Assembly: GCA_024277915.1 (NCBI GenBank)
Contig: JAJRUG010000044.1
Location: 79,490-143,489 of the forward strand
Reading direction: 5' to 3'
DNA: 64,000 nucleotides
Source: Gammaproteobacteria bacterium
Lineage (GTDB): Bacteria > Pseudomonadota > Gammaproteobacteria > Steroidobacterales > GCA-2729495
Positions 35,859-45,705 of the stretch are shown piece after piece (position 1 is the stretch's first letter; each line of letters starts with the position of its first letter). The position numbers were made by a program, and so were the translations under genes. The notes under the pieces were generated by a model. That model did no database searches and had not been told where the DNA came from. It saw only the letters and a program-made list of their open reading frames with translations.

Positions 35859-35869
<11 letters not shown>

Positions 35870-38231
35870 ATTCCGGTTCGCCCCCCCTGTACCTCATCCA
35901 GCCGAGTAAACCAAGCGCCGATCCGAACAGCCACACGGCAGCGGGTACCGGCACGGCCGAAGGCATGAGAAAACCGCTGCCGTTCAGTGCGAAGGTCTGG
36001 CCACCGAGGTAGCCATTGCCTGCCAGCAACGGGTTGTAGTAGATGTTGTAGTCACTGAAGATATAGTCGATCGTCAGCGTGGTCATATTAACGCCATCGG
36101 CCAGGCTCACCAGGCCGGCGTAAAAAGCAGCATTCCCGTCGTTGTTGCTGTCCCATATATTCAGGCGGATGCCGGATCCCAGCGATAACCCGCCCCAGGC
36201 GAAGTTATTGCTATAGCCACTGCCCCCGGTGCCCAGGTCGATACCGGCAAAATAAAGGTTCTGTACCCCGGCACCTTTGAAGATCAGGCTTGCAGCCCCG
36301 GTATTCCACAGGGTGTTTTGCAGGCTGTTGTTGGTGAAGTCACCGTTGACAAACCAGTTGGCACTCGCACCGCTGACCAGATAGCCGGTTCCGCCGATGA
36401 TGAGATTGGTGAAGTAGTTGTCGGCCGATCCGCTGAGGTAGGCGCCGTTGTTGGTGAAGGTACCTGCCCATATAGCCCTGGCGCTCTTGGCTTTTACCGT
36501 GCCCGTGGCTGTATTGGTGACATTACCGTTGACCGTGAGGCTGCCCGTGCCCGAGAGGTTGAAGTTCACATAGTTGATGATGATATCCGCGCTGAGTGAG
36601 CCGCCCGTGTAGTCGAGGGTATCGTTGTTGATAATCCTCCCGGCCCTAAGCGTGCCGCCGGAGAGGTTATAGGTGCCTGAACCTGTACTTGCGCCGATGC
36701 CCAAGTTGTTTGTCACTATATTCGTCCCGCCGGTCTGGGTGAAGGTGCCTGTGCCGTGGGTGCCGATGGCTTCATCATAGGTCGTGATCGTGTCCGTGCC
36801 GCTCAATGTATGGCTGCCGCTGGCACCGGAAGCAGAGCCGAGAATGAGTGTGCCAACGTCAATATCACCGCCGGCAACATTCAGCGTGCCGCCATCAATG
36901 ATCAACGCGCTCGAGCCACTACCGTTGAGAATGTCTCCGCCCACATCCATGGTTCCGCCGTCAATGATCAACGTGCTCGAGCCACTACCGTTGAGAATGT
37001 CTCCGCCCACATCCATGACTCCGCCCGAAAGGGTGTACGTTCCGCTGTTCATCCCGTTGCCGAGAGTGAGGTTGTTCGTCACCGTATGGGTACCGCCGGA
37101 CTGGGTGAAGACCCCGAAACCGGTTCGGCCGATGGCTTCAGAGCCGGCCGAGAGGGTGCCTCCATAGAGGTTGTAGCGGCCGTTGCCTGTCGTGCCCCAG
37201 CCGAGAACGAGATCGTTCGTCACCGTATTCGTGCTGCCGATTTGCGCATAGTTGCCTCTGCCGGCGTAGCCGATATATTCATTATCCGCGTACAGTGGGT
37301 GGGTGGGGTGCTGTGTCAGTGTCACGCCGGCGCCGCCGGTGCCGCTGATGGAGTCGATGGTGAGAGAACTCAGTCTGTCAGTCGGAGCCGTGTAGAGTGT
37401 GTTGTAGTAGTCGACATTTACGCGGTTGGCAAAGTTGAACTGCAGATTGACGATATCACCCGGCGCCGGTTGGGCACCGCTGTCCCAGTTGCTCCCTATG
37501 TCCCATTGACCGCTGTTGGCTATCCAGTTGACCGTTGCTGCCTGCGCTGACAGCGGCATGGTTGTTATTACCAATACCAGGGCTGCTGCCAGCCCCTGCC
37601 CGAGTTGCTTATGCAGAGGTCGCTTTTTCTTTATCCAGCCGAGTAAACCGAGTGCCGAGCCGAACAGCCAGACTGCTGCGGGCACTGGTACCGCCGTTAG
37701 CGAAGTCAGGTTAAATGCACTGTTTGGGTTCGTAGTCGCTGGAATATTGAGTCGAACTTGGTTAGCTTGCCTGTCGAATGCGTCGAGTGGCGGTGGTGTC
37801 AACGGCAACGAGACATCGGAAAAAACCAGGCCGCTGGCATCAACAAGCACAATCTGAAAATCGGTGTCGCTCTGAGCCGGACCCTCAGACCCATAGACCA
37901 TATACTCGTCGGTGATACCGTTGCCTCCGATCTGGTTGCTCACCCTGATCGTGAATGGGTTGATCTGAAAGCTCGATGAACCGATGGTTGCGCTGATACC
38001 GACTCCGGAACCGGAGAAATTGTAAATTCCGCCCGAACCGACAACAGAATCGTCGAACGTGAATGATCCGGAGAAAGTGTCGCCGATCGATGTGCCCCCG
38101 TAGCTATTGACCTGTCCGATCTGCGTGACAACGCCCGTGAAATTGAATGTGACCAGCGCAGCCTGCGCTCCGGACACCATTAACATGACAAAAGTGCACA
38201 CAGCACCTGATAGCAGATTGGATTTTTTCAT
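35859..38231 (-). CDS. large surface protein with two tandem in-frame (signal peptide - passenger - PEP-CTERM) modules
   Basis: ORF 35859..38306. ATG at 38231 follows AGGAG ([24 protein letters not shown]). Module 1 ends in [24 protein letters not shown] (nt ~37633-37692). It continues without a stop into [27 protein letters not shown], then a Gly/Thr/Asn-rich beta-helix-like repeat passenger, and ends in [23 protein letters not shown] (nt ~35897-35955). Confidence 0.7.
36888..37013. repeat. 63-bp tandem duplication inside the PEP-CTERM gene
   Basis: It encodes [13 protein letters not shown](T/A)LIIDGGT twice. The two DNA units are nearly identical. Confidence 0.85.
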
Positions 38232-38253
38232 CGTATTTCTCCTGTTCAATTGA

Positions 38254-38514
38254 TTACTGCGCCTGCCGTGCTGGAGAACGGGATTTTGCATAAACCACCC
38301 GGCCATCTGCGAGTGTGTGACGCTCGATCAGCTGTGCGGTTTCAAGTTCTTCCACCGCCTGCTGTACACGGCCGAGCGAGTATTTCGCCATTCGTTGCAA
38401 CAGCCACCACTGGCGAATGCCTTCGATCGAGTCGGCTGCATTGGGTTGCTCGTCGAGGTAGCCGAGCACTTCAGACTGGATTTCCGAGCGGGTGACATGG
38501 TGTGAACATTTCAT
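38254..38514 (-). CDS. 86-aa hypothetical protein (possible winged-helix-like fold)
   Basis: ORF 38254..38652. The ATG at 38514 sits 6 nt after GAGGA (MKCSHHVTRSEIQ...LIERHTLADGRVVYAKS). An alternative ATG is at 38547. It stops 22 nt upstream of the PEP-CTERM gene start. Confidence 0.5.
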   Translation of the reverse strand: MKCSHHVTRSEIQSEVLGYLDEQPNAADSIEGIRQWWLLQRMAKYSLGRVQQAVEELETAQLIERHTLADGRVVYAKSRSPARQAQ

Positions 38515-38551
38515 ACAGGTTCCTCGTTGCTGGTTGATCGTGATCATCGCG

Positions 38552-38613
38552 CCTCGAAAAACCCCCGCCGGACGGTCGGCGCGAAGGAAGAACAGTCCAC
38601 CCGGCGGGGTTTT
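38552..38613 (-). terminator. strong terminator-like hairpin in the leader downstream of the sigma54 promoter
   Basis: Minus-strand RNA is GAAAACCCCGCCGGGUGGAC-(21 nt)-GUCCGGCGGGGGUUUUU. The stem is ~17 bp, GC-rich, and followed by U5. An A-tract on the 5' side makes it symmetric (bidirectional type). Confidence 0.5.
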
Positions 38614-38635
38614 CGCAAAGACGCAATGAGTCTGT

Positions 38636-38651
38636 TGCAATCGCCGTGCCA
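38636..38651 (-). promoter_or_regulatory. sigma54 (-24/-12) promoter
   Basis: The minus strand reads TGGCAC-GGCGA-TTGCA, a full match to the TGGCAC-N5-TTGCW core. It lies 122 nt upstream of the 86-aa ORF and downstream of a sigma54 activator gene. An IHF-like TTTCAAtgagTTA is at 38670-38682. Confidence 0.7.
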
Positions 38652-38777
38652 ATGCTGCGATTAACAGGTTTTCAATGAGTTAGGAGGATCGGAATCAGAC
38701 CGGCCGGGTCAAAACGGATCCACCTGATAGCACCCACAATGCACCGGGGAAGGTGGTGCTCGACCGCTGGTCTTGGT

Positions 38778-38813
38778 GGGTCATATTTGACCCGGATGGG
38801 TTACGGGTGACCC
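38778..38813. promoter_or_regulatory. two adjacent 16-bp palindromes (candidate enhancer/UAS for the adjacent activator)
   Basis: GGGTCA-tatt-TGACCC (38778-38793) and GGGTTA-cggg-TGACCC (38798-38813). Centres are 20 bp apart, roughly -150 to -190 relative to the sigma54 promoter. Confidence 0.5.
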
Positions 38814-38818
38814 ATCAT

Positions 38819-38861
38819 GAATTCCGGACGAATTCCGGACGAATTCCGGACGAATTCCGGA
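38819..38861. repeat. 11-bp tandem repeat gaattccggac x3.9
   Basis: Read directly. Each unit carries GAATTC and TCCGGA palindromes, and the period is about one helical turn. It starts 18 nt after the activator stop codon. Confidence 0.9.
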
Positions 38862-38878
38862 ATTTTCAAATGCGCGAG

Positions 38879-39901
38879 CTAGCGCTGAAAGCTGTGTACC
38901 TCGATCCGGTGTTTCTTCAGCAGTTTGCCGAAGGCACGCCTTTCCTTCTGTGCAAAGGCTGCGGCATTGGTTACATTGCCGGCGGATCGTTCGAGCGTGC
39001 GGCGCAGATAGTCGCGCTCGAACGATTCGATCACACGCACCTTGGCTTCGGCAAATGGCAGCGCATACAGATTATCGGCAGCTTCCGTCGCATCACTATC
39101 GAGTCTGTCCGGAAGCAGGTGACACGGCAAAACTTCATCATCCTGGGCGAGCAGCAGGCCGCGCTGAATGCAGTTCTCAAGCTCACGGACATTGCCGGGC
39201 CATTCGTGTTCTGTAAGCCAATCGAGTGTTGCCTGGCTCAGGAACTTGCTCTCCAGTGCATATTGCGCCGCAAACTGAACCAGGAAATGCCTGGCCAGTA
39301 ATGCGATATCTGATTGATGTTCGCGTAAAGACGGCAGTCGAATCGGCAGGACGTCCAGGCGATAGAAAAGGTCATTGCGAAATTGCCCTGGCGTTTTACG
39401 TAGTTTGTCGAGGTCAATATTAGTTGCGACGATAATACGCACGTCTGCGGTTCGGAGCCTGGTGCCGCCGACCCGCCGAAAGCTCATATCCTGCAGGAAG
39501 CGCAATAAGGTGACCTGGGCTTTCGGCGTCAGGGCTTCGATCTCGTCAAGGAACAACGTGCCACCTGCGGCCTGTTCGACGAGGCCGGTATGACTCTCGC
39601 GTGCATCGGTGAAAGCGCCGCGCCGGTGGCCGAATAGTTCGCTCTCGACGAGCGCGTCGGGTAACGAGCCGCAATTGACCGGGATGAATGGCCCGGATGC
39701 ACGTGTGCTGAGATAGTGCAGCGACCTGGCGACCAGTTCCTTGCCGGTGCCGGTCTCACCGTAGATCGAAACAACGACGTCGTAGTTGGCGACGCGACGG
39801 ACGGTGTCGATGATCGTGCGCAAGACGGGGGCATTACCGATCAGGTTGGTCGGCAGTAACTCGGCAGACACAGCATCTGCACGAGATGAGCACGGTTGCA
39901 T
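38879..39901 (-). CDS. sigma54-dependent transcriptional activator lacking an N-terminal sensory/receiver domain
   Basis: 340 aa. The AAA+ core begins ~20 residues from the N-terminus. It has Walker A GETGTGKE, GAFTDA (a GAFTGA variant), Walker B LFLDEI, GNVRELEN, and a C-terminal Fis-type HTH GNVTNAAAFAQKERRAFGKLLKKH. Confidence 0.85.
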   Translation of the reverse strand: MQPCSSRADAVSAELLPTNLIGNAPVLRTIIDTVRRVANYDVVVSIYGETGTGKELVARSLHYLSTRASGPFIPVNCGSLPDALVESELFGHRRGAFTDARESHTGLVEQAAGGTLFLDEIEALTPKAQVTLLRFLQDMSFRRVGGTRLRTADVRIIVATNIDLDKLRKTPGQFRNDLFYRLDVLPIRLPSLREHQSDIALLARHFLVQFAAQYALESKFLSQATLDWLTEHEWPGNVRELENCIQRGLLLAQDDEVLPCHLLPDRLDSDATEAADNLYALPFAEAKVRVIESFERDYLRRTLERSAGNVTNAAAFAQKERRAFGKLLKKHRIEVHSFQR

Positions 39902-40039
39902 GGCTCAACTTCCCCGACCTCCAGCCATACCAGCCGGTGGTCCATTTGCAGCTAATACTTCCCCAAGTATTTTCTAAAGCTTTATGGCTCGATATGCATT
40001 GACCCAGGTCAAACCTGAAGGGAACTGCCCTCTGGATTA

Positions 40040-40059
40040 AATATAAAGAATTCTTTATA

Positions 40060-40061
<2 letters not shown>
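40040..40061. promoter_or_regulatory. perfect 22-bp palindrome, candidate ArsR/SahR-type operator
   Basis: AATATAAAGAA|TTCTTTATATT was read directly. It lies immediately upstream of, and overlaps, the regulator start codon region. Confidence 0.6.

Positions 40062-45705
<5,644 letters not shown>

Follow-up and report, generated by a model that had tools for sequence, protein, structure and literature searches.

Putative σ54 enhancer-promoter between a sensor-less activator gene and PEP-CTERM protein genes in a gammaproteobacterial contig

Organization of the locus

The DNA analyzed here is a 64,000-nucleotide stretch (the window) of contig JAJRUG010000044.1, positions 79,490 to 143,489 of the forward strand, from a gammaproteobacterium of the Steroidobacterales (GenBank assembly GCA_024277915.1). 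Within the window, a gene for a σ54 enhancer-binding protein (the activator) is followed on the minus strand by an intergenic region and then by an operon encoding surface proteins with VPLPA/PEP-CTERM sorting signals. The intergenic region carries a −24/−12 core promoter, an element resembling a binding site for integration host factor (IHF), three inverted repeats (dyads), and an 11-bp tandem array, and the part from the core to the farthest dyad is interpreted below as a probable enhancer-promoter for the operon. In the direction of transcription, and using window coordinates, the features are as follows.

38879 to 39901, minus strand: gene for a sensor-less σ54 enhancer-binding protein of 340 amino acids, assigned with Pfam profiles
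38819 to 38861: 11-bp tandem repeat in 3.9 perfect copies, reading GAATTCCGGAC on the plus strand and TCCGGAATTCG on the minus strand, detected with Tandem Repeats Finder (TRF)
38798 to 38813: distal dyad 2, GGGTTAcgggTGACCC, symmetric at five of six positions, centre 154.5 bp upstream of the T of TGGCAC, about −180 (−180.5)
38778 to 38793: distal dyad 1, GGGTCAtattTGACCC, perfect, centre 134.5 bp upstream of the T of TGGCAC, about −160 (−160.5)
38706 to 38721: proximal dyad, GGATCCgtttTGACCC (minus strand), symmetric at four of six positions, centre 62.5 bp upstream of the T of TGGCAC, about −88
38670 to 38682, plus strand: IHF-like element, TTTCAAtgagTTA, one mismatch to WATCAANNNNTTR, centre about −51
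38636 to 38651, minus strand: σ54 −24/−12 core, TGGCACggcgaTTGCA, assigned by exact pattern match and conservation

Predicted core promoter and upstream elements

The core TGGCACggcgaTTGCA is the sole exact match to a TGGCAC-N5-TTGCW-type pattern in the window, with 0.17 expected from shuffles. Of 100 shuffled versions of the window, 16 contained at least one exact match, and by itself the lone match is only modestly improbable. The GG and GC doublets lie 10 bases (one helical turn) apart, and with C(−12) at 38637 a σ54-dependent transcript would be predicted to start near 38625. Both this core and the IHF-like site had been named in an original prediction made from the letters of the window alone. 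The core was recovered at 38651 to 38636, unique in the window, and the IHF-like site, which had been placed near −50, lies at 38670 to 38682; this match is no better than chance when taken alone, and it is conserved at related loci.

The same prediction described two 16-bp palindromes 20 bp apart, and these correspond to the distal dyads at 38778 to 38793 and 38798 to 38813 (20 bp, start to start). Exact matches to GGGTYA-N4-TGACCC had an expectation of 0.00, with none in 100 shuffles. The proximal dyad was found as a match with two mismatches to the dyad pattern. Spacings of 72 and 20 bp separate the three dyads and would be compatible with their lying on one helical face. Curvature, calculated as a Bolshoy-Trifonov wedge-model path with approximate parameters, was unusually high at 38700 to 38725 (99th percentile of the window), which coincides with the proximal dyad and its T4 tract and not with the array.

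Conservation at related loci

No genome identical or nearly identical to this one is on record. Related loci, numbered with the prefix L, were reached through the activator at 75% identity (L001), 73% (L002 to L004), 56 to 61% (L005, L006, and L167 to L173), and 55% (L087). Others were reached through the small protein encoded by the first gene of the operon: L174 (86% identity, with intergenic DNA 79% identical to that of the window), L175, and L176. In all loci with a long enough contig the gene order is the activator, an intergenic region of ∼300 to 400 bp, a small winged-helix gene, and genes for secreted proteins with sorting signals.

An alignment of positions −105 to +1 from nine loci (A1: the window, L002, L087, L167 to L171, and L005) was nearly ungapped, and its conserved blocks were the proximal dyad, TAACnCATTGAAAA, and TTGGCAC-N5-TTGCA. 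The TGGC and TGCA columns of the last block were invariant over the nine loci. TAACnCATTGAAAA was conserved in position in columns 50 to 65 and also in L174, the core of which is identical to that of the window, and −24/−12 matches were present in eight more distant loci as well. Because they are conserved at related loci, the −24/−12 and IHF-like motifs are more than chance occurrences.

The proximal dyad formed an ungapped block (columns 12 to 30) in all nine loci of A1 and is found at the same place in L174 (GGGTCCgtcgTGACCC). Distances from dyad centres to the T of TGGCAC were measured by dyad scan, except that the proximal value for the window was read directly. The proximal distance was 61.5 bp in L087, L167, L168, L169, L170, and L005 and 62.5 bp in L002 and the window, that is, 61.5 to 62.5 bp in eight of nine loci; in L171 the nearest dyad, symmetric at five of six positions with a 3-bp spacer, was centred at 64.0 bp. 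The proximal dyad is therefore the most position-conserved site of the family. Farther upstream, a dyad of the cognate type was located at 131.5 to 134.5 bp in the window, L002, L168, and L169, and a dyad at 151.5 to 154.5 bp in the window, L002, L167, L169, L171, and L005. Overall, the spacing between dyads and promoter was constant to about 1 to 3 bp among related loci. A second alignment (A2) showed large variation in how far the first dyad lies from the activator stop codon, and since the promoter distance is fixed and the stop-codon distance is not, the dyads are placed relative to the promoter rather than to the end of the gene.

Conservation at orthologous loci had been proposed as a check on the motifs, and the layout is kept at about 10 related loci. 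The enhancer layout as first described thus stands for the distal dyads, the IHF-like site, and the promoter, although it had overlooked the third dyad at 38706 to 38721.

The activator and its putative recognition sites

The activator open reading frame (ORF) runs from 39901 to 38879 and stops with TAG at 38881 to 38879, where the stop had been predicted. Residues 20 to 187 matched PF00158 (Sigma54_activat) with 206.6 bits, and AAA_lid_14 scored 77.7 bits. Walker A (GETGTGK) starts at residue 48. The loop predicted to contact σ54, at residues 95 to 100, reads GAFTDA, a variant of GAFTGA that is kept in most of the family; GAFTDA is listed among the substitutions expected to retain activation in a survey of Desulfovibrio activators (PMC4641369). 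Pfam identified no N-terminal sensory or receiver domain, the AAA+ domain starting at residue 20 of 340, and the relatives are similarly short (316 to 356 amino acids). The protein scored under every NCBIfam equivalog cut-off, including those of PrsR (TIGR02915, 285.5 versus 502.6, the match being limited to profile positions 139 to 444) and PspF (TIGR02974, 250.5 versus 443.55).

When loci were compared, the half-site of the dyads changed together with the predicted recognition helix of the adjacent activator, in a small sample paired by eye.

GGGTCA or GGGTCG, helix (G/Q)KERR(A/S)(F/L)G(K/R)L: window, L001, L002, L087, L167, L168, L009, and L117
AGGACA-N4/5-TGTCCT, helix KKNRRAFWQL: L008, L093, and L098
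TGCGTCA, helix NMGRRTLGRL: L169
GGCGC, helix TERSTL or TDRSTL: L170 and L171
GTGTCA, helix KERSSLSRL or TERSSLSRL: L005 and L172

Such covariation is what a cognate pair of protein and site would predict, and it points to the activator as the protein that may bind the dyads.

Autoregulatory dyads 5′ of the activator gene were also considered and rejected, as no other locus repeated the cognate half-site ahead of this gene. In the window, TTGACCTGGGTCAA lies at 40012 to 39999, within the divergent intergenic region and ∼100 bp before the start codon of the activator; it contains the GGGTCA half-site in everted arrangement. A sequence CCGATGACGCAA was seen upstream of the activator start at ∼175 to 190 nt in L001, ∼170 to 185 nt in L002, and ∼60 to 75 nt in L169; two of these three loci use GGGTCA-type enhancer dyads. 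No conserved partner gene precedes the activator, the upstream ORFs being unrelated among loci. In the window, a 239-amino-acid ORF (40009 to 40728, minus strand) overlaps a gene for an ArsR-SAM-methyltransferase (40060 to 41112, plus strand). It has no family matches and an odd composition and is probably a spurious antisense shadow of the methyltransferase gene.

The 11-bp tandem array

TRF reported a single array of period 11, with 3.9 copies and 100% matches, at 38819 to 38861, in agreement with the repeat originally described; each unit contains two 6-bp palindromes. No other copy of the unit was present in the window. The array lies between the activator stop codon and distal dyad 2, in a spacer that is not conserved and distal to all three dyads, with centres 176 to 202 bp from the promoter. 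It is self-complementary and folds as a long imperfect hairpin.

In alignment A2 the array was an insertion relative to L002, L001, L167, and L168. It is absent from L001, L167, and L168 and is not conserved in L169 or L005 either. L002, a 73%-identical relative, has one homologous unit, TCCCGAATACG, matching at 9 of 11 positions, a level reached in 1.4% of shuffled spacers. The contig of the closest relative, L174, starts within the repeat, with GGAATTCG TGCGAAATTCG directly before the distal dyad, and at least two units are present there, at least one of them degenerate. In a comparison limited to these diverged relatives, the copy number appears to be 1 (L002, degenerate), at least 2 (L174), and 3.9 (window). 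No identical or near-identical strain was on record for a comparison of copy number, and scans of genomes and metagenomes gave relatives of 55% identity or less. The array appears to be a young, lineage-restricted expansion, by slipped-strand mispairing, of a sequence that is single copy in relatives; the perfect identity of its four copies argues that the slippage was recent.

Since the array lies outside the interval between enhancer and promoter, its copy number cannot alter enhancer distance or phase, and the earlier suggestion that slippage could tune either is excluded by this geometry. Phase-variable repeats are located where they alter a reading frame or promoter spacing, and this one lies 3′ of a stop codon. 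The idea that the array is a DNA-bending element was rejected as unsupported: its curvature is ordinary, at the 71st percentile for the window, and 60% of shuffled 11-mers are more curved than the unit. An origin as an EcoRI-linker artefact was discarded on the grounds that the repeat has a period of 11 instead of 12 and a unit different from the linker CCGGAATTCCGG, and that relatives have a homologous unit at the corresponding position. The array is probably neutral for promoter function, and it matters little except as a possible strain marker.

Leader and downstream genes

Downstream of the predicted transcription start, the following features were identified.

38559 to 38613, minus strand: leader stem-loop with a 13-bp G+C-rich stem and a 29-nt C/U-rich loop, followed by a run of five U residues (to 38555)
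38254 to 38514, minus strand: first gene, encoding an 86-amino-acid winged-helix-like protein, with GAGGA at 38525 to 38521 and ATG at 38514 to 38512
35859 to 38231, minus strand (ATG at 38231): ORF with two VPLPA/PEP-CTERM modules in one frame, identified by translation

In the leader, which is ∼111 nt long, the hairpin comes after the predicted start and ahead of the ribosome-binding site. L174, L168, L169, L170, and L171 have comparable hairpins in the equivalent position, preceded by a conserved UGCGUCAUCG(A/G)AA-like start; L002 shares this start, and its contig ends inside the hairpin region. A hairpin also precedes the small gene of L175, a gene that is internal to an operon and has no promoter before it; thus the hairpin travels with the small gene. 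A conserved intrinsic terminator is unlikely, as a U-run is missing from most copies; attenuation is possible in the window and L174. No Rfam match was obtained in 38200 to 39000 at E values up to 5, and covariation in the stem was weak (compensatory changes in two of nine pairs, six sequences). A loop acting as an anti-Shine-Dalgarno sequence was rejected: energies of pairing between the loop and the Shine-Dalgarno sequence beat shuffles only in the window and L168 (0.03 to 0.04) and not in L174, L169, L170, L171, L167, or L175.

The 86-amino-acid protein gave a weak Pfam match to MarR_2 (17.9 bits, under the cut-off), and no solved structure is related to it by sequence. Its AlphaFold model (predicted local distance difference test score, 80) has an H-H-H-β-β topology of three helices and two strands, and the best structural matches were Fur-type DNA-binding domains at an E value of 0.1 or worse. 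In at least 15 loci the small gene immediately follows that of the activator. As the activator has no sensor domain, its activity would depend either on its level of expression or on a trans-acting partner, and by analogy with other systems discussed below, the 86-amino-acid protein is a candidate for that partner.

The operon had been described as a PEP-CTERM operon. A PEP-CTERM ORF does lie downstream, although the first gene is that of the winged-helix-like protein. In the PEP-CTERM ORF the first sorting signal (...GWIKKKR) continues without a stop into a segment resembling a signal peptide and a second protein ending in the same signal. The ORF scored 19.9 with TIGR02595 (PEP_CTERM; cut-off, 16) and 24.6 with TIGR03370 (cut-off, 25.35); the latter cut-off is passed by downstream proteins of L087 (33.8), L005 (30.1), and L167 (31.6). 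At the fusion junction (37590 to 37650, minus strand) there is an A-rich run, ataaagaaaaagcg, with a TAA in the +1 frame 20 nt later. The two proteins in one frame could be either a real fusion or a homopolymer frameshift.

Housekeeping genes flank the cassette. On one side gatA and gatB are convergent, followed farther out by mreB; on the other, the ArsR-methyltransferase gene, metF, and metH are divergent. Among the annotated ORFs of the window there was no exosortase, prsK, prsR, or prsT. Third-position G+C content was 0.65 to 0.69 in the cassette (35859 to 39901) versus mostly 0.5 to 0.6 in the other ORFs of the window, which suggests that the cassette between gatB and the ArsR-methyltransferase/metF/metH block is a small acquired island.

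Proposed mechanism and alternative explanations

Taken together, these features make it quite likely that 38636 to 38813 is the enhancer-promoter of a self-contained σ54 cassette and that the array is a young and most likely neutral addition. Dimers of the sensor-less activator would bind the three GGGTCA-N4-TGACCC-type dyads at −88, −160, and −180, and a bend at the IHF-like element (−51) would bring them to the RNA polymerase-σ54 complex on TGGCAC-N5-TTGCA. ATP hydrolysis would then open the promoter near 38625, giving a transcript that would comprise the structured leader, the 86-amino-acid winged-helix gene, and the VPLPA/PEP-CTERM surface-protein genes. Activation by the adjacent activator through DNA looping had been proposed originally; the fixed geometry and the covariation of dyad and helix at related loci favor it, although the array, which the proposal had included, is not part of the conserved architecture.

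Several observations weigh against the enhancer-promoter interpretation. The proximal dyad of the window is degenerate, the C-terminal Fis-type HTH_8 domain of the activator scored 19.8 bits, under the Pfam cut-off of 22, and the IHF-like match is at chance level, with 50 matches of one mismatch or less in the window versus 40 expected. Genes for rpoN and ihf were not identified among the annotated ORFs of the window, only part of its ORFs being annotated. The leader hairpin and its U5 run separate the promoter from the first gene, and if the hairpin terminates transcription, operon expression would need antitermination. Lastly, the array itself contains GAATTC-N5-GAATTC dyads whose phasing relative to distal dyad 2 is roughly helical, their centres being 21.5, 32.5, and 43.5 bp away from it.

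This last arrangement would suit a functional array, either a second binding array for another regulator (for instance the 86-amino-acid winged-helix product or an OmpR/PhoB-type protein reading 11-bp direct repeats) or an extension of the activator platform. The four units are perfectly phased, each with its pair of palindromes, and a degenerate repeat is retained in L174. Such a role is nevertheless improbable: five of the relatives (L001, L167, L168, L169, and L005) do not conserve the array and L002 has a single degenerate unit, no further copy exists in 64 kb, the unit bears no similarity to the GGGTCA half-site, and the identity of its copies points to recent expansion rather than to long-term selection on sites. 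The array could instead act through RNA or DNA structure, as a 3′ stem-loop that stabilizes or weakly terminates the activator mRNA. The 116 nt from 38770 to 38885, which include the array and both distal dyads, fold with −49.3 kcal/mol (z score, −5.25), the array hairpin lying within, and palindromes directly follow the stop codon in L167 (CCCCGTcccgaACGGGG), L005 (CTGTCTttaaaAGGCAG), and L169 (ACGCGTccgcgaACGCGT). A self-complementary unit folds well by construction, however; no U-run follows the array, the terminator scan does not pick it up, and L002, L001, and L168 have no comparable hairpin, all of which leaves this explanation unlikely.

Two further alternatives bear on the promoter itself. 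If the promoter mainly made a leader RNA of ∼70 nt ending at the hairpin and U5 run (38613 to 38555), its product would be a σ54-dependent small RNA or a read-through attenuator. The terminator-like stem plus GGGGTTTTTC, the stem and U-rich tail retained in L174, and the σ54-dependent non-coding RNAs listed beside activator genes for Desulfovibrio all fit this proposal. It is doubtful all the same, given that the homologous hairpin lacks a U-run in L168, L169, L170, and L171, that L175 carries it before the same small gene at an operon-internal, promoterless position, and that the leaders of L087 and L009 are short and unstructured; the missing Rfam family and a complementarity between loop and Shine-Dalgarno sequence not above shuffles in most loci count against it too. 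The dyads, for their part, might be terminators or hairpins like repetitive extragenic palindromic (REP) sequences that end the activator gene, next to a fortuitous −24/−12 match. They do lie downstream of the stop codon and would form hairpins in RNA, and 16 of the 100 shuffles contained an exact −24/−12 match, as noted above. Their fixed spacing to the promoter rather than to the stop codon counts against this explanation, as do the presence of three copies (one of them 160 bp from the stop), the covariation of the half-site with the recognition helix, the invariance of the core in nine loci, and the lack of U-runs. It was already disfavored and is very improbable.

Distribution of the cassette

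The pairing of activator and small protein is found beyond PEP-CTERM loci. In L008, L009, L011, L013, L016, L096, and L117, from genomes of Acidobacteria, Halieaceae, Chromatiales, and Phycisphaerales, the pair (activator 44 to 51% identical) precedes genes of contractile injection systems, including Pvc16_N, tail sheath, and tube (TIGR02241/CIS1) genes. Most of these distant loci carry their own −24/−12 match and dyads, without conserved dyad spacing; no −24/−12 match was found in L016. Two surveys of extracellular contractile injection systems name GerE, BTAD, RfaH, and TetR-type regulators, and σ54 activators are unmentioned in them.

The cargo thus comprises VPLPA/PEP-CTERM surface proteins in the clade of the window and extracellular contractile injection systems in distant relatives. 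Synteny suggests, tentatively, that the activator, three-dyad enhancer, promoter, and small gene could form a portable cassette placed before varied secreted cargo, with the small protein perhaps serving as signal input or as a feedback partner like PspA or HrpV. The arrangement provides a wiring diagram (three sites, fixed spacing, and a cognate activator) for PEP-CTERM genes outside the described PrsK/PrsR control, and it defines a likely DNA recognition code for a widespread, uncharacterized subfamily of sensor-less σ54 activators. If worked out here, it could explain how some contractile injection loci in other phyla are switched on.

Comparison with known systems

Proteobacterial PEP-CTERM genes are known to be preceded by a σ54 motif and a 17-nt motif ending in TTTACA, both attributed to PrsR, a response regulator that acts together with PrsK and PrsT (Haft et al. 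2006, PMC1569441), and RpoN dependence of the PEP-CTERM gene pepA has been shown experimentally in Aquincola tertiaricarbonis (PMC9850573). As in the PrsK/PrsR regulon, the PEP-CTERM genes of the window lie behind a long intergenic region with an activator motif tens of bases upstream of the −24/−12 core; the PrsR spacer is 62.8 ± 10.6 nt (PMC1569441) versus ∼54 nt here, counted from the end of the proximal dyad. Unlike PrsR, the window activator has no receiver domain and falls far below the PrsR cut-off (285.5 versus 502.6), and unlike in the PrsR regulon, the sites are GGGTCA-N4-TGACCC dyads and the first gene encodes a small winged-helix protein. TTTACA/TGTAAA is absent from 38515 to 38878, with no match at five of six positions in the expected interval, as judged by the ending of the motif rather than by its full logo. 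The locus would work like the PrsK/PrsR system and is not a member of it.

In the psp system of Escherichia coli (PspF) and the HrpR/S-HrpV system of Pseudomonas syringae, a protein of the target operon (PspA or HrpV) controls the activator in trans. The present activator resembles PspF and HrpR/S in consisting only of an AAA+ domain and a putative helix-turn-helix, in being encoded beside a single target operon, and in having upstream dyads together with an IHF-like site. It differs from PspF in score (250.5 versus the cut-off of 443.55) and in its tandem rather than divergent gene order, and the product of the first gene is a winged-helix protein, unlike the PspA/IM30 coiled coil.

Contingency loci carry a repeat within a reading frame or between promoter elements, where slippage switches expression. 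The array of the window resembles bacterial variable-number tandem repeats in its perfect short units and in a copy number that apparently differs between relatives; unlike the repeats of contingency loci, it is located neither in the reading frame nor between enhancer and promoter.

With NtrC-, NifA-, and XylR-activated promoters (glnAp2, nifH, and Pu), the locus shares dyads that are separated by about two helical turns and located at −100 to −200, as well as a putative IHF bend between them and the core. It departs from them in the extra proximal dyad at −88 with its fixed spacing and in an activator with GAFTDA and no signal-sensing domain. In this company, the locus is best read as an ordinary enhancer-dependent σ54 promoter under an uncharacterized activator subfamily.

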